NCBI GenBank assembly: GCA_000004985.1
Contig: GG739038.1
Direction: 5' to 3' (one strand)
Source of the DNA: Naegleria gruberi
Taxonomy: Eukaryota
DNA: 9,432 nucleotides
Shown piece by piece: positions 5 to 9,432 of this stretch. Position numbers and translations under genes: made by a program. Positions within the stretch are counted from its first letter, which is position 1. Every line of letters begins with the position of its first letter. A model generated the notes under the pieces. That model was not told the DNA's origin. It made no database searches and saw only the letters and a list, made by a program, of their open reading frames with translations.

Positions 5-1126
5 TCAATCTTGTCCCTTGAATGATTTAATCCAATTGAAATGTCCTCTCCTCTTATCATAATTGAATCCAAATTGACCTTCTCTTGAAAAGGAAGCGGC
101 AACATTAAATTGAATTTTTGCTTGAACTTGTAATTGACCTTCCAATGCAAAATTTACATTTACAACAACTGGAATTGCTAGAATTGTAAACTTGATACTA
201 GTAATTTTCTTCTTTTTCAAAATTGTAAAGTCTTTTGTCTTTTCAAATTCAGCTGTCATTGTCAAATTAGCATTCAATGCATTGTCAAAGTGAACTGATG
301 CAGCAGCTCTATTTGGTTTACACCATCTAAAGTTAATTTCCATTGTAAACCGAACTGTACTGTAGAAATAACAATTACTGCAGACATATTTGAAATTTCC
401 TTCTTGATTTTCAATGGATGGATTTCTGGCAGTTTTTCTATCTCTATCCCAATTAAAATTGACAATATCAAAAGATCTATTGACACTCCAACGTTTGTTT
501 GGTGTTGTTTGAGTTACAGAGCTCGATTCAGGTTGTTTGACACTTGGATTATGAGTTTGAAGTTTGATGTGTGTGAAAACTTGATTAAATTCAATTGTTT
601 TAGTATCGACCACATAGAGAATTTCTCCATTTTCAGTTTTCACTTCATGAATATTTTCTGCCAATCTGTACAAAACTGGTTCATTAGTTGGTTGACCAAT
701 TTCACAGTCAAAATCATCCATACTTGAAACTAATAATGAACCAATCTTGATATGAGTATTGGTATGTCTGGTCTTTCTCACTTTCAAGTAAAGTCTGTCT
801 TTCGAACATCCAATATCTAACACGTCAGGATGCATGTCTAAATTGACAGTGTCAAAAGTCAATGTAGCGTCATAGGCAAAGAATTGTTTGTTATCCTTAT
901 TGGACAATGAGCCATCAGGTCCTATGAGTCTTTTACTTGTCATTTTGGTATGAGATTTAATTCTTTCCTTTGCTCTGATGAAAAATTGTTGGTCTGACAT
1001 TTGGCGTTTCATGTGAAATGGCTTTCTAGAAGCAAAGTACTTAGTAGCAGTCTCATCCCATGCATTAGTACAGGATGCAAATACACTAATGCAAATCAAC
1101 AAAATCACCGCTTTGAGTGCTGACAT
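5..1126 (-). CDS. Secreted protein of unknown family. The N-terminal 373 aa are present. The ATG is at 1124-1126 and the ORF is still open at the window edge, so the C-terminus is missing.
   Basis: The minus frame is uninterrupted for 1122 nt in a roughly 33% GC background. The N-terminus MSALKAVILLICISVFASCTNA is a classic signal peptide: a positive residue, a hydrophobic core, then small residues. The ATG is preceded by AAAAAA, matching the other genes here. No family motif was recognised from the sequence alone. Confidence 0.6.
   Translation of the reverse strand: MSALKAVILLICISVFASCTNAWDETATKYFASRKPFHMKRQMSDQQFFIRAKERIKSHTKMTSKRLIGPDGSLSNKDNKQFFAYDATLTFDTVNLDMHPDVLDIGCSKDRLYLKVRKTRHTNTHIKIGSLLVSSMDDFDCEIGQPTNEPVLYRLAENIHEVKTENGEILYVVDTKTIEFNQVFTHIKLQTHNPSVKQPESSSVTQTTPNKRWSVNRSFDIVNFNWDRDRKTARNPSIENQEGNFKYVCSNCYFYSTVRFTMEINFRWCKPNRAAASVHFDNALNANLTMTAEFEKTKDFTILKKKKITSIKFTILAIPVVVNVNFALEGQLQVQAKIQFNVAASFSREGQFGFNYDKRRGHFNWIKSFKGQD
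274..727. other. The internal and antisense ORFs 274..486 (-) and 404..727 (+) lie entirely inside the 5..1126 gene. I treat them as spurious.
   Basis: Both overlap the long signal-peptide ORF in other frames and have low-complexity, hydrophobic composition. Confidence 0.6.
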
Positions 1127-1704: not shown

Positions 1705-4700
1705 NNNNNNNNNNNNNNNNNNNNNNNNNNNNNNNNNNNNNNNNNNNNNNNNNNNNNNNNNNNNNNNNNNNNNNNNNNNNNNNNNNNNNNNNNNNNNNNN
1801 NNNNNNNNNNNNNNNNNNNNNNNNNNNNNNNNNNNNNNNNNNNNNNNNNNNNNNNNNNNNNNNNNNNNNNNNNNNNNNNNNNNNNNNNNNNNNNNNNNNN
1901 NNNNNNNNNNNNNNNNNNNNNNNNNNNNNNNNNNNNNNNNNNNNNNNNNNNNNNNNNNNNNNNNNNNNNNNNNNNNNNNNNNNNNNNNNNNNNNNNNNNN
2001 NNNNNNNNNNNNNNNNNNNNNNNNNNNNNNNNNNNNNNNNNNNNNNNNNNNNNNNNNNNNNNNNNNNNNNNNNNNNNNNNNNNNNNNNNNNNNNNNNNNN
2101 NNNNNNNNNNNNNNNNNNNNNNNNNNNNNNNNNNNNNNNNNNNNNNNNNNNNNNNNNNNNNNNNNNNNNNNNNNNNNNNNNNNNNNNNNNNNNNNNNNNN
2201 NNNNNNNNNNNNNNNNNNNNNNNNNNNNNNNNNNNNNNNNNNNNNNNNNNNNNNNNNNNNNNNNNNNNNNNNNNNNNNNNNNNNNNNNNNNNNNNNNNNN
2301 NNNNNNNNNNNNNNNNNNNNNNNNNNNNNNNNNNNNNNNNNNNNNNNNNNNNNNNNNNNNNNNNNNNNNNNNNNNNNNNNNNNNNNNNNNNNNNNNNNNN
2401 NNNNNNNNNNNNNNNNNNNNNNNNNNNNNNNNNNNNNNNNNNNNNNNNNNNNNNNNNNNNNNNNNNNNNNNNNNNNNNNNNNNNNNNNNNNNNNNNNNNN
2501 NNNNNNNNNNNNNNNNNNNNNNNNNNNNNNNNNNNNNNNNNNNNNNNNNNNNNNNNNNNNNNNNNNNNNNNNNNNNNNNNNNNNNNNNNNNNNNNNNNNN
2601 NNNNNNNNNNNNNNNNNNNNNNNNNNNNNNNNNNNNNNNNNNNNNNNNNNNNNNNNNNNNNNNNNNNNNNNNNNNNNNNNNNNNNNNNNNNNNNNNNNNN
2701 NNNNNNNNNNNNNNNNNNNNNNNNNNNNNNNNNNNNNNNNNNNNNNNNNNNNNNNNNNNNNNNNNNNNNNNNNNNNNNNNNNNNNNNNNNNNNNNNNNNN
2801 NNNNNNNNNNNNNNNNNNNNNNNNNNNNNNNNNNNNNNNNNNNNNNNNNNNNNNNNNNNNNNNNNNNNNNNNNNNNNNNNNNNNNNNNNNNNNNNNNNNN
2901 NNNNNNNNNNNNNNNNNNNNNNNNNNNNNNNNNNNNNNNNNNNNNNNNNNNNNNNNNNNNNNNNNNNNNNNNNNNNNNNNNNNNNNNNNNNNNNNNNNNN
3001 NNNNNNNNNNNNNNNNNNNNNNNNNNNNNNNNNNNNNNNNNNNNNNNNNNNNNNNNNNNNNNNNNNNNNNNNNNNNNNNNNNNNNNNNNNNNNNNNNNNN
3101 NNNNNNNNNNNNNNNNNNNNNNNNNNNNNNNNNNNNNNNNNNNNNNNNNNNNNNNNNNNNNNNNNNNNNNNNNNNNNNNNNNNNNNNNNNNNNNNNNNNN
3201 NNNNNNNNNNNNNNNNNNNNNNNNNNNNNNNNNNNNNNNNNNNNNNNNNNNNNNNNNNNNNNNNNNNNNNNNNNNNNNNNNNNNNNNNNNNNNNNNNNNN
3301 NNNNNNNNNNNNNNNNNNNNNNNNNNNNNNNNNNNNNNNNNNNNNNNNNNNNNNNNNNNNNNNNNNNNNNNNNNNNNNNNNNNNNNNNNNNNNNNNNNNN
3401 NNNNNNNNNNNNNNNNNNNNNNNNNNNNNNNNNNNNNNNNNNNNNNNNNNNNNNNNNNNNNNNNNNNNNNNNNNNNNNNNNNNNNNNNNNNNNNNNNNNN
3501 NNNNNNNNNNNNNNNNNNNNNNNNNNNNNNNNNNNNNNNNNNNNNNNNNNNNNNNNNNNNNNNNNNNNNNNNNNNNNNNNNNNNNNNNNNNNNNNNNNNN
3601 NNNNNNNNNNNNNNNNNNNNNNNNNNNNNNNNNNNNNNNNNNNNNNNNNNNNNNNNNNNNNNNNNNNNNNNNNNNNNNNNNNNNNNNNNNNNNNNNNNNN
3701 NNNNNNNNNNNNNNNNNNNNNNNNNNNNNNNNNNNNNNNNNNNNNNNNNNNNNNNNNNNNNNNNNNNNNNNNNNNNNNNNNNNNNNNNNNNNNNNNNNNN
3801 NNNNNNNNNNNNNNNNNNNNNNNNNNNNNNNNNNNNNNNNNNNNNNNNNNNNNNNNNNNNNNNNNNNNNNNNNNNNNNNNNNNNNNNNNNNNNNNNNNNN
3901 NNNNNNNNNNNNNNNNNNNNNNNNNNNNNNNNNNNNNNNNNNNNNNNNNNNNNNNNNNNNNNNNNNNNNNNNNNNNNNNNNNNNNNNNNNNNNNNNNNNN
4001 NNNNNNNNNNNNNNNNNNNNNNNNNNNNNNNNNNNNNNNNNNNNNNNNNNNNNNNNNNNNNNNNNNNNNNNNNNNNNNNNNNNNNNNNNNNNNNNNNNNN
4101 NNNNNNNNNNNNNNNNNNNNNNNNNNNNNNNNNNNNNNNNNNNNNNNNNNNNNNNNNNNNNNNNNNNNNNNNNNNNNNNNNNNNNNNNNNNNNNNNNNNN
4201 NNNNNNNNNNNNNNNNNNNNNNNNNNNNNNNNNNNNNNNNNNNNNNNNNNNNNNNNNNNNNNNNNNNNNNNNNNNNNNNNNNNNNNNNNNNNNNNNNNNN
4301 NNNNNNNNNNNNNNNNNNNNNNNNNNNNNNNNNNNNNNNNNNNNNNNNNNNNNNNNNNNNNNNNNNNNNNNNNNNNNNNNNNNNNNNNNNNNNNNNNNNN
4401 NNNNNNNNNNNNNNNNNNNNNNNNNNNNNNNNNNNNNNNNNNNNNNNNNNNNNNNNNNNNNNNNNNNNNNNNNNNNNNNNNNNNNNNNNNNNNNNNNNNN
4501 NNNNNNNNNNNNNNNNNNNNNNNNNNNNNNNNNNNNNNNNNNNNNNNNNNNNNNNNNNNNNNNNNNNNNNNNNNNNNNNNNNNNNNNNNNNNNNNNNNNN
4601 NNNNNNNNNNNNNNNNNNNNNNNNNNNNNNNNNNNNNNNNNNNNNNNNNNNNNNNNNNNNNNNNNNNNNNNNNNNNNNNNNNNNNNNNNNNNNNNNNNNN

Positions 4701-5520
4701 NNNNNNNNNNNNNNNNNNNNNNNNNNNNNNNNNNNNNNNNNNNNNNNNNNNNNNNNNNNNNNNNNNNNNNNNNNNNNNNNNNNNNNNNNNNNNNNNNNNN
4801 NNNNNNNNNNNNNNNNNNNNNNNNNNNNNNNNNNNNNNNNNNNNNNNNNNNNNNNNNNNNNNNNNNNNNNNNNNNNNNNNNNNNNNNNNNNNNNNNNNNN
4901 NNNNNNNNNNNNNNNNNNNNNNNNNNNNNNNNNNNNNNNNNNNNNNNNNNNNNNNNNNNNNNNNNNNNNNNNNNNNNNNNNNNNNNNNNNNNNNNNNNNN
5001 NNNNNNNNNNNNNNNNNNNNNNNNNNNNNNNNNNNNNNNNNNNNNNNNNNNNNNNNNNNNNNNNNNNNNNNNNNNNNNNNNNNNNNNNNNNNNNNNNNNN
5101 NNNNNNNNNNNNNNNNNNNNNNNNNNNNNNNNNNNNNNNNNNNNNNNNNNNNNNNNNNNNNNNNNNNNNNNNNNNNNNNNNNNNNNNNNNNNNNNNNNNN
5201 NNNNNNNNNNNNNNNNNNNNNNNNNNNNNNNNNNNNNNNNNNNNNNNNNNNNNNNNNNNNNNNNNNNNNNNNNNNNNNNNNNNNNNNNNNNNNNNNNNNN
5301 NNNNNNNNNNNNNNNNNNNNNNNNNNNNNNNNNNNNNNNNNNNNNNNNNNNNNNNNNNNNNNNNNNNNNNNNNNNNNNNNNNNNNNNNNNNNNNNNNNNN
5401 NNNNNNNNNNNNNNNNNNNNNNNNNNNNNNNNNNNNNNNNNNNNNNNNNNNNNNNNNNNNNNNNNNNNNNNNNNNNNNNNNNNNNNNNNNNNNNNNNNNN
5501 NNNNNNNNNNNNNNNNNNNN
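1705..5520. other. Run of 3816 N's, either an assembly gap or masked sequence. Its content cannot be known.
   Basis: A contiguous n run. The four long ORFs in the track spanning it (1407..5684, 1640..5629, 1687..5532, 1699..5568) are X-string artefacts. Confidence 0.99.
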
Positions 5521-5780: not shown

Positions 5781-5786
5781 TTTATT
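5781..5786 (-). terminator. AATAAA polyadenylation-signal-like hexamer 29-34 nt downstream of the ubiquitin-like gene's stop codon.
   Basis: The plus strand reads tttatt at 5781-5786, which is AATAAA on the minus strand. The stop codon TGA is at 5815-5817 on the minus strand. Confidence 0.35.
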
Positions 5787-5814: not shown

Positions 5815-6045
5815 TCAACCTCCTTTTAATTGGGGAGTGAGATGAATGATATCACCATTCTTTAAGCCAGTATCGATTATTGAGGAATCGTCTGGGAGAA
5901 TCTTTCCATTATATACTAATCGTAGATTGACAATGCTAAATCCAATCTTTTCCTCAATGAGTTTCTTCAAATATATTATTTTATCTGAATTTTCCAAATC
6001 AAACTTGAGGTAACCTCCTGATAATGTTCTGACTTGTATTTGCAT
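5815..6045 (-). CDS. Ubiquitin-like protein of 76 aa ending in Gly-Gly followed directly by the stop codon. It is a divergent member of the ubiquitin/NEDD8(Rub1) fold family, a single exon, and has no C-terminal propeptide.
   Basis: ATG at 6043-6045 on the minus strand, preceded by aaaaaaaaa. It reads MQIQVRTLSGGYLKFDLENSDKIIYLKKLIEEKIGFSIVNLRLVYNGKILPDDSSIIDTGLKNGDIIHLTPQLKGG and stops with TGA at 5815-5817. It aligns without gaps over all 76 positions to ubiquitin, with about 25/76 identities: M1, I3, V5, T7, L8, G10, E18, S20, D21, K27, K33, G35, R42, L43, G47, K48, D58, K63, H68, L69, L73, G75, G76. It matches NEDD8/Rub1 at about 27-28/76 (EEKxG at 31-35, RLxYxGK at 42-48). Positions 72/74 are Q/K rather than ubiquitin's R/R or NEDD8's A/R, and there is a Pro at 71. 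Confidence 0.75.
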   Translation of the reverse strand: MQIQVRTLSGGYLKFDLENSDKIIYLKKLIEEKIGFSIVNLRLVYNGKILPDDSSIIDTGLKNGDIIHLTPQLKGG

Positions 6046-6087
6046 TTTTTTTTGATGTTTCGAATGTTGTCATGCATACACCAAAGT

Positions 6088-6378
6088 TCATGTTGAGAAC
6101 TCATTACAAAAATTACAACAAAAACTTATTGAAAATTGAAATTGTGCCATCAGTACTTTCACACAAATAACAATATCCTGTTTTTGGGTCAATTCTCACT
6201 CCATACAATCCACTACTTGAACCCAAAGCAAATGATTTCAACATGTTAAGCTCTCTATCAAACACAAATACGTTAGAGGAATTAGTAACAAAAATTCGGT
6301 GGCTATCCTCTTCATAGAATATTGAATAAAAACTCTGTCCCTCTTTTGGTGATCCTGTTTTTTTGAAGACCTTGGAAA
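6088..6378 (-). CDS. Possible coding exon of 96 codons (open stop-to-stop, no initiator at its start) with beta-propeller-like repeat character (NHL/YVTN-like). The gene model is unresolved.
   Basis: The minus frame reads FSKVFKKTGSPKEGQSFYSIFYEEDSHRIFVTNSSNVFVFDRELNMLKSFALGSSSGLYGVRIDPKTGYCYLCESTDGTISIFNKFCCNFCNEFST and stops with TGA at 6088-6090 on the minus strand. A 96-codon stop-free stretch with non-repetitive, strand-like composition is unusual at this AT content. A polypyrimidine-AG (ttaattttccaag) lies immediately 5' of it on the minus strand. A putative signal-peptide-like start MMNKKLVLTLMLHF exists upstream at about 6600 (minus strand), but I could not connect it with GT-AG introns. 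Confidence 0.3.
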
Positions 6379-6663
6379 ATTAAGCCTCCTCAAACAGTAG
6401 TCTGAGTAAACAATGAACAAATCATTTTCCTTAATTATGTACTTGTGAGACTAACATCCAAATAGTAACAGCCTGTTAGCCACTTCTATTCTGCCCACCA
6501 ATTCAAAATCTAGAGAAAATATTATACGAGAGGGTTCTCGGTTTCAGTCATGTGGTCGAAAATGCAACATCAATGTTAATACCAACTTTTTGTTCATCAT
6601 TACATTTTTTCTTCTCGATTATTATTCTTTCCCGTATAAAATTTTAGGTAGTCAGTTTGTGAA

Positions 6664-6708
6664 AACTCAATATCAAATTTTGAAAAATAAACAATTTGAT
6701 ATTGAGTT
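6664..6708. repeat. Perfect 16-bp inverted repeat aactcaatatcaaatt / aatttgatattgagtt separated by a 13-nt A-rich spacer. It is embedded in a field of aatttga/tcaaatt and gatc motifs (about 6640-6790).
   Basis: Arm 1 at 6664-6679 is the exact reverse complement of arm 2 at 6693-6708. Nearby are gatcaaattgatttgat and ttttgatccaa. Confidence 0.65.
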
Positions 6709-6896
6709 GTGATCCGAATTAAATTTTTCGAGGATCAAATTGATTTGATAGAGAGTTTTGATCCAATAGCTGAATCAAAATTCGACTCTGAAAAATTCCC
6801 TGATTCATTGCTGAAAGTTACTGAAACCATGCTGAATAACAACTTTGAATCCTTACTCTTGTGGATAGAATAAGAGCTTTATTCAAGAGTGAGATT

Positions 6897-7106
6897 ACAA
6901 TCCTACTACAGCACAGAATGAAGATGAATGATAATTAGACACACTTACCTATACGTATTATGAAACCTTCTCAGTTTCAGCTATGTATGTTGCCATTCAA
7001 GCTGTCTTGTCCTTGTATGCTTCTAGTTGAACTACTGGTGTTGTTTTGGACTCTGGTGATGGTGCCTGCCACTGTTCCAATTTATGAAGGTTATGCTTTG
7101 CCACAC
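6897..7106 (+). pseudogene. Decayed internal fragment of a conventional actin gene, roughly residues 110-175. It has a premature stop and a frameshift, and the 5' and 3' thirds of actin are absent.
   Basis: 6980-7063 translates [27 protein letters not shown], where actin has [29 protein letters not shown]. An in-frame TGA at 7028-7030 sits where the conserved Arg codon AGA belongs, with Gly>Ser beside it. Between ggtgatggtg and tgttccaatttat, 8 nt (cctgccac) replace the expected 10 nt encoding V-T/S-H-T, a -2 frameshift. After that, 7071-7106 reads T-V-P-I-Y-E-G-Y-A-L-P-H in another frame; this is the track ORF 6960..7142. Upstream, 6914-6980 retains ragged similarity to ...NREKMTQIMFETFNVPA with indels. 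Actin similarity stops abruptly after LPH at 7106. Confidence 0.6.
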
Positions 7107-7548
7107 TCTTCATCCAAACACTCATCATCATCCTCAAAATGACCATTATCAATTGTTATGGATCAGCAACAGTAAGATCTCCGCACGTTATCATCTTCAT
7201 CAACATTGATTGCAGCATTGCCAAATACAATTCCGACACTTCTTGGTAGTTGCCAGCTGGCAGGTTGGGACAAGTGGCCTTAATAGATTTAAGAATGTTG
7301 TCAGATCCCGCCAATTCCCTTTGTAAAATCAAAGGCTATTTTTACCTTAAAAAAATGGCATACTACTTTGTATTCGAGGAGGTATCGTACAAGGAAATCA
7401 TTGCGTAACAGGTTGCTCAACTATAGTATTTACATTGGACAATCAAGGATTGGTAAATCGATATAGTAGTTTTGAACTAATATGAATTGGATGAATCGAC
7501 TAGTATGTATTTAAGCCTGTGATATTCCGATCATCATCATTATTATAG

Positions 7549-7803
7549 TTGATCAACAGGACGATTCATCATCAACAACAAAAACAAGAACAGCTTCCGA
7601 ATCAGATCAAACCACAGAGGGTAGGAAGTTGCAACTCTGCTATCAAAGGTCCTGGTGTTTTTTGCTTGCTAACTTTGACGACACGTTTGTACCCTCATTG
7701 TTGCACAAATACCACTCTCAATTGCTTAAATGTAAGTATCACGAATAATTAATTATTAAGACTTGTTCTCTTTTCAGAAATACATCTCTTCAATATTAAC
7801 ACT
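7549..7803 (+). other. Candidate exons of a spliced plus-strand transcript (coding or 5'UTR). They comprise an exon at 7549-7731, a 46-nt intron at 7732-7777 (GTAAGT...ctcttttcag), a 26-nt micro-exon at 7778-7803, and a second GTAAGTAG donor at 7804 running into the N-run.
   Basis: Canonical splice signals can be read directly. The exon at 7549 follows a pyrimidine-AG (ttattatag at 7540-7548). The track ORF 7549..7752 starts at TTG, not ATG, so it is an exon candidate rather than a gene start. Possible upstream exons sit around 7346-7372 (aaaaaaATGgcatactac...gaggag|gtatcg...taacag) and 7405-7446. The frame and protein identity are unresolved. Confidence 0.25.
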
Positions 7804-7828
7804 GTAAGTAGTAAATGAGAATATCATC

Positions 7829-8179
7829 NNNNNNNNNNNNNNNNNNNNNNNNNNNNNNNNNNNNNNNNNNNNNNNNNNNNNNNNNNNNNNNNNNNNNNNN
7901 NNNNNNNNNNNNNNNNNNNNNNNNNNNNNNNNNNNNNNNNNNNNNNNNNNNNNNNNNNNNNNNNNNNNNNNNNNNNNNNNNNNNNNNNNNNNNNNNNNNN
8001 NNNNNNNNNNNNNNNNNNNNNNNNNNNNNNNNNNNNNNNNNNNNNNNNNNNNNNNNNNNNNNNNNNNNNNNNNNNNNNNNNNNNNNNNNNNNNNNNNNNN
8101 NNNNNNNNNNNNNNNNNNNNNNNNNNNNNNNNNNNNNNNNNNNNNNNNNNNNNNNNNNNNNNNNNNNNNNNNNNNNNNN
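7829..8179. other. Run of 351 N's (gap or masked).
   Basis: A contiguous n run. Track ORFs 7815..8186 (+) and 7824..8264 (-, TTG start) are artefacts of translating N. Confidence 0.99.
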
Positions 8180-8289
8180 AAAGTAATTGTTCTTGTATTA
8201 AATCAAGAGAAGAATCATTATTGGATAGATCATCTCCAACAAGTGAATGGTCATTGTAAGTCAACTTTTCAATTTACTAATTGTTAATT

Positions 8290-8550
8290 ACATTCTCAAG
8301 TTTGATTGGAAATCATTAAATGAATAGGATTGGATTGATTCATTTTGGATATGAACGAATCTCATTATTGGACATGAATCATATGGTTTATTTTCATTAG
8401 AACTCAATCCTATAGAATCATTTCATGATGCGAAGAGTCTGAATCATATTGTTTAATCATTAGATAGAATCACTTCATGATGTGAAGAGTAGTAATTTCT
8501 CCTTACCTCAACTTGTAAATTTTCGACTTGTTAATTTTGACAAGTCAATA
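8290..8550. repeat. Motif field upstream of UBC9 with at least 8 copies of (t)gaatcat/atgattc, including two 27-nt direct repeats, atagaatcaYttcatgatgYgaagagt at 8412-8438 and 8464-8490. It also holds a short inverted repeat gacttgt/acaagtc (8525-8531 / 8540-8546) containing ttgacaagtcaa.
   Basis: Read directly. The copies are gaatcattaaatg, ttgattcatttt, gaatctcatt, tgaatcatatgg, agaatcatttcatgatg, tgaatcatattg, taatcattag and agaatcacttcatgatg. The two 27-mers differ at 2 positions and are 52 nt apart. Confidence 0.55.
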
Positions 8551-8987
8551 AATTATCAATTATTTACAACAATTTTGGTATCAAGTTTTGATGTCTACAT
8601 TGGTACTCAGTTTTGATCCTTTTTATTTTTTTATTTTGAATCACAGGTCCAGAATCTGTACATCACTTAGCAAACTCAATATCAAAACCAATGATCCCAG
8701 ATATCAAACTTCAATAAAACCCATAACCAAAAAGCTTCGCGATTTTGATCAAACATTGATCTGGAAATTTTATACGGGTTAACTTTAAATAGTGGAAGAA
8801 AATAATGTTTCCACACAATTAAATCCTTGTTATTAATTCTTTGGTAGCACAGATGATGAATTCGTCATTAAACAAATAACATTGTTCTCTTCTGAATATT
8901 GAGCAAGAAGGCTTGTAGAAATGGGCCATGCAATTTTTTAATAAAAATAAAATTGTTTTCAAAAATTTAAAAAAAAGCAAAAACAAA

Positions 8988-9053
8988 ATGTCCTCCATCG
9001 CTAGAAAGAGAGTTATGGAAGAGAGAAAGAACTGGAGAAAGGACCACCCTTAT
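8988..9053 (+). CDS. UBC9: UBC9-type SUMO-conjugating enzyme (E2), exon 1, 22 codons.
   Basis: ATG at 8988 preceded by aaaacaaa. It reads MSSIARKRVMEERKNWRKDHPY, matching the UBC9 N-terminus ...L/RxxERKxWRKDHPF. It is followed by the donor GTATGT at 9054. The track ORF 8928..9122 is this exon read through the donor into the intron, plus a spurious upstream extension. Confidence 0.85.
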
Positions 9054-9194
9054 GTATGTATTGTTTTGAGGTGTAATTTAATATCGATATATAAAGAATA
9101 TTTTCTTCCGATCACCAAATAATTAAATTGATTTTAATGATGACAATAATTTACTATATTGTGTGATGAAAATTAACAACAACAACAATAACAG
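9054..9194 (+). other. UBC9: Spliceosomal intron of UBC9, 141 nt, GTATGT...AACAG, phase 0.
   Basis: The donor gtatgt is at 9054-9059. The acceptor is ...caacaacaataacag|GGTTTC, with AG at 9193-9194. Joining restores HPY|GFWARP, colinear with HPF|GFVAVP in canonical UBC9. Confidence 0.8.
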
Positions 9195-9432
9195 GGTTTC
9201 TGGGCCAGACCTCAACAACAAGAAGACGGAACAACTAATGTAATGGTATGGAATTGTGGTATCCCAGGTAAACCAGGTACAATATGGGAAGGAGGTGAAT
9301 ATAGATTAGATATTGAATTCCCTGATGAATATCCAGACAAGCCTCCAAAGTGTAAATTTGTACCACCACTTTTCCATCCAAACATTTTCCCAAGTGGTAC
9401 TGTTTGTTTGAGTATTTTGAATGAAGATAAGG
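9195..9432 (+). CDS. UBC9: UBC9-type SUMO E2, exon 2 (UBC fold core). It is partial and continues past the window end.
   Basis: It reads [79 protein letters not shown]. It carries the UBC9 hallmarks PPKCKF, the HPN motif, and the active-site Cys in SGTVCLSIL. Confidence 0.85.

Follow-up and report, generated by a model that had tools for sequence, protein, structure and literature searches.

Background

NEDD8 is a regulator of cullin-RING ubiquitin ligases across nearly all eukaryotes. The rules by which it is recognized, namely those that concern residue 72, E31/E32, the I44 patch and the processing of the C-terminal tail, were derived almost exclusively in animals, yeast and plants. A non-basic residue at position 72 (Ala, Thr or Gln) admits the NEDD8-activating enzyme (E1) and shuts out the ubiquitin E1; Glu31-Glu32, or Gln-Glu in some protists, is required for cullin neddylation; the L8-I44-H68-V70 patch and the L71/L73 tail serve the E1, the conjugating enzyme (E2) and the deneddylases; and Gly75-Gly76 normally become exposed by the removal of a short tail. 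Here we describe a gene for a ubiquitin-like protein (UBL) in a 9,432-nucleotide stretch of the genome of Naegleria gruberi (contig GG739038.1; hereafter, the window). The encoded protein probably is a divergent modifier of the NEDD8 family that belongs to a lineage-restricted clade, is born in the mature form and functions through a NEDD8-type mechanism.

Described counterparts of the window UBL come, among others, from other protists. The NEDD8 of Plasmodium falciparum (PfNEDD8, Q8IEI4) is, like the window UBL, a protein of 76 residues with a stop codon after Gly76, Gln72 and E31-E32; it is conjugated to cullins via Gly76 and complements yeast rub1 (PMC7677368). Within Plasmodium, tailed and tail-less NEDD8 species coexist; the NEDD8 proteins of Nematocida, Hydra and Amphiamblys are tail-less as well; Gln72 is the normal state of apicomplexan NEDD8; and the Toxoplasma gondii and Cryptosporidium parvum proteins have Gln31-Glu32 (PMC7677368). 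In Entamoeba histolytica, experiments have shown that NEDD8 modifies cullin1 and that CSN5 deconjugates it (PMC7531848); the sequence compared here (EhNEDD8, C4LVJ5) is probably EHI_103510 of that study. Trypanosoma brucei NEDD8 modifies all six cullins (PMC7600729). The protist NEDD8 sequences that we used were taken from a machine-read alignment in the supplement of PMC7677368 and might contain small optical character recognition (OCR) errors; in this alignment (supplementary Fig. S2), the T. brucei protein (Q584D3) ends in ...ALRAGC, not in the expected ...RGG, so that, unless this is an OCR error, the Gly75 rule is relaxed even in a validated discoban NEDD8. Naegleria possesses CSN5, CSN2 and CSN8 of the neddylation machinery, and its ubiquitin differs from the human one in 3 positions only (PMC9741609). 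In the literature, we found no NEDD8 sequence from Naegleria or Willaertia.

Results and discussion

An intact gene for a beta-grasp protein with a bare Gly-Gly end

The UBL gene occupies positions 5815-6045 of the window; the first-pass annotation, which was made from the nucleotide sequence alone, had these coordinates right, and the gene lies on the minus strand, with the ATG at 6045-6043, 76 codons, and the TGA stop at 5817-5815. The features of the gene are:

5818-6045, minus strand: coding sequence of the NEDD8-like modifier (list of open reading frames (ORFs), translation, Pfam, gapless alignment, AlphaFold2 (AF2), Foldseek)
5815-5817, minus strand: TGA stop codon adjoining Gly75-Gly76 (ORF list, translation)
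5781-5786, minus strand: AATAAA hexamer, a putative polyadenylation signal (pattern scan)
6046-6072, minus strand: short 5' leader with eight A and an in-frame TGA (sequence read, in-frame upstream walk)

The translation, MQIQVRTLSGGYLKFDLENSDKIIYLKKLIEEKIGFSIVNLRLVYNGKILPDDSSIIDTGLKNGDIIHLTPQLKGG, has exactly 76 residues and ends in ...LKGG followed directly by the TGA, as originally described. The A-rich context of the start codon and the AATAAA noticed at that stage are present, too: a run of eight A immediately precedes the ATG, and the minus-strand pattern scan finds the hexamer at a distance of 31 nt, counted from the first base of the stop. Nine codons ahead of the ATG, at 6070-6072, there is an in-frame TGA, so that an N-terminal fusion partner encoded without splicing is ruled out, and inside the ORF there is no strong splice donor of the GTAAG/GTATGT type. 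Because relatives of the protein carry Cys directly after the two glycines (see below), reassignment of TGA was considered. This possibility was rejected given that TGA also terminates a neighboring 373-aa ORF and sits in frame upstream of the UBL ATG, and that readthrough would yield an unrelated 10-residue tail, ILLILTVQFQ, followed by TAA. This hypothetical extension is unlike the tail of any relative.

The assignment of the protein to the ubiquitin fold is confirmed by both profile search and structure prediction. The Pfam ubiquitin model (PF00240) matches the window UBL with E=3.6e-14 and 52.7 bits (cut-off 25.4), and a match to Rad60-SLD is much weaker (E=8.2e-07). Residues 1-76 align without gaps to residues 1-76 of ubiquitin (36% identity) and of human NEDD8 (37%), in line with the initial estimate of about one-third. 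The AF2 model, built from the family alignment, displays the beta-grasp pattern of secondary structure with a mean pLDDT of 84.4, and when this model was compared with PDB using Foldseek, the eight best hits were NEDD8 chains (TM 0.76), closely followed by ubiquitin; for SUMO chains, the identity is 20%. The positions originally listed as retained or distinctive are indeed present (L8, K27, K33, R42-L43, V44, G47-K48, H68-L69, P71, Q72, L73, K74, G75-G76), with the exception of K63: the lysine is at position 62, and position 63 is Asn. Thus, the window UBL is a protein of the beta-grasp fold whose Gly-Gly end is free, and very probably is conjugatable.

A family of relatives with the QLILQLKGG terminus

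A word-indexed search with the window protein alone yielded a single relative, P0001, a 78-aa protein that is 75% identical to the window UBL, ends in LKGGSL and is encoded on a 4-kb metagenome contig with 32% G+C. Alignment-based searches added P0152, P0153, P0154 (ABK040_002648) and P0155 (ABK040_003816), and a search with four family sequences added P0156-P0160. The 10 relatives include two paralogues, P0154 and P0155, from the heterolobosean amoeba Willaertia magna, so far the only named organism among them, and eight metagenomic sequences; both Willaertia proteins are annotated as hypothetical proteins, and two of P0156-P0160 were automatically annotated by JGI as 'ubiquitin-like protein Nedd8'. 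An exhaustive representative search with the window protein was uninformative as to close relatives, with only polyubiquitins among the best 150 matches because the scores of their repeats add up. A scan of metagenome loci returned only a near-canonical ubiquitin (L002:828-1073) that is unrelated to the QLILQLKGG family; this protein has an MT prefix and a VDF tail, and is encoded on a gene-dense, giant virus-like contig together with ORFs similar to eIF1A and uracil-DNA-glycosylase.

In neighbor-joining (NJ) trees, the family that consists of the window UBL and its relatives is monophyletic, with a bootstrap of 98% when only canonical references are included and 95% when protist NEDD8s are added (here and below, supports are read as unrooted splits). 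The C-terminus ...QLILQLKGG is found in every relative whose contig extends that far, and in all 9 complete relatives it is followed by a tail of 1 to 6 residues: N, F, F, LQ, CL, CF, CF, SL and GHNKNL. The window copy is the only tail-less one in the family and, with 9 of 9 complete relatives tailed, is a derived form. The residues that are invariant across the family include K22, E32, D53, Q72, K74 and G75-G76; in the closest six sequences, the invariant set consists of L8, S9, G10, K14, D21, K22, Y25, K27, E32, K33 and G35, followed by R42, L43, V44, N46, G47, K48, I49, L50, D52 and D53 and, near the C-terminus, L69, Q72, L73, K74, G75 and G76. Compared to the rest of its family, the window protein has the longest branch, H68/T70/P71 in place of Q68/I70/L71, and N40-L41 in place of Q40-Q41. 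It groups with the sub-clade that contains the Willaertia proteins (support of 88-91%). A split of the family into two paralogues (the window UBL, P0001 and P0155 versus the rest), suggested by the common V5/I34/S55, received a bootstrap of only 14% and was abandoned.

When the window was compared with 14 loci (L001-L014) using tblastx, the UBL gene was the only one in common, and no E1 or E2 gene was detected near the UBL gene at any related locus. The two Willaertia paralogues (L003:10001-10237 and L004:10001-10249; GCA_041937235.1) are 63% identical, with dN/dS of 0.42; one is located in a gene-dense region with 26% G+C and the other, which has the 6-residue tail GHNKNL, in a gene-poor region with 19.6% G+C. 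A second pair comes from one metagenome (ERZ929261): P0001 (L001), the sister of the window gene, and P0152 (L006), which is close to a Willaertia copy. The two contigs have 32.0% and 32.6% G+C, respectively, and the GC3 of the two genes is 0.28 and 0.39; P0001 and P0152 could be paralogues within a single organism or could come from two different ones.

Probable affinity with NEDD8

Compared with the sequences in PDB, the window UBL scores 51.4 bits with Arabidopsis thaliana RUB1, 47.7 with human NEDD8 and 35.4 with ubiquitin; with the reference sequences that we typed in, the scores of ubiquitin and human NEDD8 are identical to these, and that of RUB1 agrees to within 1 bit. With these references, a NEDD8-type sequence scores best for 9 of the 10 family members. 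Canonical NEDD8/Rub1 (human, A. thaliana RUB1, yeast), which provides the best PDB matches of the window UBL both by sequence and by structure, has the same gapless 76-residue beta-grasp, and shares with it E31-E32, K22, K27, K33, R42-L43, G47-K48, the acidic residue 53 (D53 in the window UBL), G64, H68-L69, L73, G75-G76 and the non-basic residue 72 (Q72). Throughout the family, positions 31-32 are Q31-E32 or E31-E32, position 53 is acidic and position 72 is non-basic, and G64 is retained in all members but two. The differences from canonical NEDD8 are substantial as well: the window UBL is just 36-41% identical to these proteins, lacks a C-terminal propeptide, has V44, T70, P71, Q72 and K74 where canonical NEDD8 has I44, V70, L71, A/T72 and R74, and N-L in place of Q40-Q41, and is devoid of K4, K6 (Arg in the window UBL), K11, K54 and K60. 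In the hydrophobic patch and tail, L8, V44, H68 and L73 are kept, whereas T70 and P71 are specific to the window copy.

Ubiquitin has the fold, the length, the MQI start, R42, K48 and the Gly-Gly end in common with the window UBL. However, ubiquitin is almost invariant and is encoded in polyubiquitin or ribosomal-protein fusion genes, whereas the window UBL is stand-alone, 36% identical, and has Q4, G11, L29, N63 and Q72 in place of F4, K11, K29, K63 and R72.

The less diverged members of the family bridge it to canonical NEDD8. P0156-P0160 carry VEEKVGIPPxQQRLVFSGK and KILPDDKT...QLILQLKGG, to be compared with VEEKEGIPPQQQRLIYSGK of human NEDD8, and P0159 is 54% identical to the E. histolytica protein. 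EhNEDD8 is the named NEDD8 nearest to the family in the tree, although the support for this grouping is weak (24%); it has in common with the family NIK..L.G, EPTDKI, QQRLVF, DDKT and a one-residue tail, F, but ends in LLLALRGG (A72, R74) where the family has LILQLKGG, and is 37% identical to the window UBL. Together with E31-E32 in the window UBL, the NEDD8 core motif of these relatives, and their automatic annotation, speak against the original suggestion that the protein is distinct from NEDD8.

Neither does divergence set the family apart. Identity to human NEDD8 is 45% for T. brucei, 51% for E. histolytica, 52% for P. falciparum and 55% for Amphiamblys, and among themselves the protist proteins are often only 33-44% identical; for the QLILQLKGG family, the values are 37-49% to human NEDD8 and 37-54% to EhNEDD8. 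Given the comparable divergence of validated NEDD8s from protists, that of the family is ordinary by protist standards. The same applies to Q72, K74 and the missing tail, which had been taken as marks of a distinct modifier, possibly with its own E1 and E2 specificity: given the precedents in validated NEDD8s, Gln72, the length of 76 residues and the stop codon after the Gly-Gly pair provide no argument for a new class of modifiers. PfNEDD8 is only 39% identical to the window UBL and belongs to a different clade; therefore, the two proteins have arrived at Gln72 and at the loss of the tail in parallel, not through shared ancestry. The tail-less state is thus unusual within the family but precedented in a malaria parasite, and in this respect the find is modest, not striking.

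Purifying selection and acceleration

The window UBL is a real ORF and a selected gene. Comparison with P0001 gives dN/dS of 0.19 at dS of ~0.95; for other pairs in the family, the ratio is 0.12 (P0152-P0154) and 0.42 (the two Willaertia paralogues). In simulations that let the sister sequence drift neutrally, the ORF together with Met1 and the Gly-Gly end survived in 5.9% of the runs at 0.15 substitutions per site and in 1.2% at 0.27, before indels are counted. Because such survival is rare, the window UBL is not a long-dead pseudogene, and the initial view that the gene is intact rather than a ubiquitin pseudogene holds.

The gene is under purifying selection and yet accelerated. Nine changes can be polarised to the window lineage, V17L, P39V, Q40N, Q41L, M45Y, V59T, Q68H, I70T and L71P, and these cluster at residues 39-41 and 68-71. 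The regions in question (Q40, the I44 patch and the tail) are the partner-contact surfaces of ubiquitin and NEDD8. The clustering fits relaxed constraint and a shift of partners alike.

A putative NEDD8-type mechanism and the alternatives

If the window UBL is a member of the NEDD8 family, it presumably is expressed and would act through the conventional neddylation cascade. The exposed carboxylate of Gly76 would be adenylated by the heterodimeric NEDD8 E1 (ULA1-UBA3), which tolerates a non-basic residue 72; the activated modifier would then be handed to a UBC12-type E2 and joined to the conserved lysine of a cullin. This modification would activate cullin-RING ligases and would be reversed by the COP9 signalosome. 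In nearly all relatives, the tail of 1-6 residues would need to be clipped by a C-terminal hydrolase, whereas in the window lineage, with the stop codon right after Gly76, the protein would be born mature and the hydrolase step would be skipped.

We consider this interpretation the most probable one; nevertheless, several observations weigh against it. The profile of the family scores almost equally with human NEDD8 (65.4 bits) and ubiquitin (65.1), with RUB1 at 71.1. In the NJ tree with canonical references only, the family (98%) falls outside the grouping of ubiquitin and NEDD8 (74%), and the placement of the family with NEDD8 is supported at just 25%. When protist NEDD8s are added, the family (95%) becomes part of the NEDD8 grouping as a neighbor of EhNEDD8, and ubiquitin joins the FUBI and ISG15 outgroups, but the support for this inclusion is only 44%; this value is weak, yet it is about what 76 residues allow. 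The window copy itself is the most diverged member, with its 37% identity to human NEDD8, and has lost Q40, Q41 and L71, which are invariant in ubiquitin, NEDD8 and the family, in addition to having T70 in the hydrophobic patch; its branch is accelerated, with 8-9 unique changes versus 0-1 in P0001 (nearest outgroups; chi-square 5.4-9.0). The word-indexed search with four family sequences retrieved no Naegleria protein, a canonical NEDD8 being beyond the reach of such queries. Finally, W. magna has two family paralogues, and P0001 and P0152 come from one metagenome.

The last three observations bear on the strongest alternative, under which the window gene is an extra, lineage-specific, NEDD8-derived paralogue that exists beside a conventional NEDD8 and has changed its partners, be these targets, readers or deconjugases, and perhaps also its E1 or E2. 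The Willaertia pair, and the pair of P0001 and the more conserved P0152 on contigs of nearly the same G+C content, imply that the window gene could be the diverged one of two copies, the other being more conserved; with no Naegleria protein recovered, a separate canonical NEDD8 in heteroloboseans is compatible with the data. The clustering of the nine changes of the accelerated window lineage at partner-contact surfaces, the loss of the tail and the near-equidistance of the family profile from ubiquitin and NEDD8 fit this alternative, too. However, the grouping of the window UBL with P0001 and P0155 that would represent the second paralogue has only the negligible bootstrap given above, and the different GC3 of P0001 and P0152 might indicate that these genes come from different organisms. 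Furthermore, the C-terminal hexapeptide that dominates the choice of the E1, LQLKGG, is identical in the other members, with the window UBL differing only at P71, and a dedicated E1 or E2 is linked to the UBL gene at no family locus, the E2 gene in the window being that of UBC9, a SUMO enzyme. We regard this alternative as a serious but clearly less likely one.

A more radical version posits that the entire QLILQLKGG clade is a modifier distinct from NEDD8 that functions beside canonical NEDD8 in heterolobosean-type amoebae. The window copy, in which the 39-41 loop, the edge of the I44 patch and the tail (T70, P71) are re-tooled and the propeptide is missing, would then operate in a conjugation pathway apart from that of NEDD8, with enzymes or targets of its own. 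We find this version rather unlikely.

Still less probable appears to be the possibility that the window gene is a redundant copy under relaxed constraint, with little or no function, that is decaying into a pseudogene. Its branch is the fastest one of the family, with substitutions at the otherwise invariant Q40, Q41 and L71; the gene is found in gene-poor surroundings that include an actin pseudogene fragment, with no ORF of more than 67 aa for 3 kb, and its product has no record in the public protein collection. Such decay is hard to reconcile with dN/dS of 0.19 accumulated over dS of ~0.95, with the rarity of neutral survival of the ORF, Met1 and the Gly-Gly end, and with the retention of all core fold positions and G75-G76 in a protein for which AF2 produces a confident model.

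That the protein belongs to another ubiquitin-like class (ubiquitin, SUMO, FUBI or ISG15/FAT10) or is a non-conjugated ubiquitin-fold protein is highly improbable despite the SUMO E2 (UBC9) gene 3 kb away and the Rad60-SLD match: ubiquitin is excluded by the 36% identity and the missing R72, F4, K11, K29 and K63, all the more so with the near-human ubiquitin of Naegleria (PMC9741609); SUMO, which has an N-terminal extension, uses UBC9 and ends in ...QxGG, is much less similar to the window UBL (20% identity) than NEDD8 and ubiquitin are, and the linkage to UBC9 is absent at all related loci; and ISG15/FAT10 are tandem-domain proteins and FUBI is fused to ribosomal protein S30, whereas the window UBL is single-domain, unfused and without an N-terminal extension, and FUBI and ISG15 split from the family at 100% in the NJ trees.

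Surroundings of the gene

The window is eukaryotic, with about 33% G+C. The other features in it are:

5-1126, minus strand: intron-less ORF of 373 aa with a signal peptide-like N-terminus (MSALKAVILLICISVFASCTNA...), ending in TGA
1705-5520 and 7829-8179: runs of N (3816 and 351 bases, respectively)
6938-7097, plus strand: fragment of conventional actin, approximately residues 117-170, 64-83% identical to human beta-actin
8988-9432, plus strand: 5' part of the UBC9 gene (exon 1, 8988-9053; exon 2 from 9195 and off the end of the window)
9054-9194, plus strand: GT-AG intron of the UBC9 gene

The identity of the UBC9 gene is clear, with all of the top 28 PDB matches being UBC9 (142-158 bits) and other E2s scoring at most 85 bits. 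Because no E1 or E2 gene is found near the UBL gene at any related locus, we treat the linkage of the two genes, across 3 kb, as coincidence. The actin fragment contains one in-frame stop and one frameshift and looks like a pseudogene remnant. A head-to-head arrangement of actin and UBL genes in common with L006 was considered and dismissed: the window has a broken conventional actin, and L006 a divergent actin-related protein. The 373-aa ORF has no Pfam match, and the public protein collection contains no identical sequence. Another ORF, which starts at 1407 (plus strand) with a Q/T-rich low-complexity N-terminus, enters the run of N at 1705-5520, making this large gene unreadable. Between the UBL and UBC9 genes (6046-8987, ~3 kb), the ORFs of both strands do not exceed 67 aa; this region holds fragments and a 27-nt direct repeat (8412-8438 and 8464-8490, 93%), and such a gene-poor stretch is unusual for a genome as gene-dense as that of Naegleria. 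No tRNA or Rfam families were found in the window.

Conclusions

The analysis described here identifies what appears to be a new, unusually diverged, tail-less member of the NEDD8 kind in Naegleria; we find no support for the notion that it is a separate modifier served by enzymes of its own. The QLILQLKGG family represents another independent lineage with Gln72, and the window gene another independent loss of the propeptide, combined with Pro71 and Thr70 at positions where the tail and the patch are usually deemed fixed. These sequences provide data on natural variation that should be useful for understanding the specificity of E1, E2 and deneddylases, and are relevant to Naegleria-related amoebae, in which neddylation has been proposed as a pathway to target with drugs. 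Should the family turn out to coexist with canonical NEDD8, it would represent a new modifier specific to its lineage and would deserve biochemical study.

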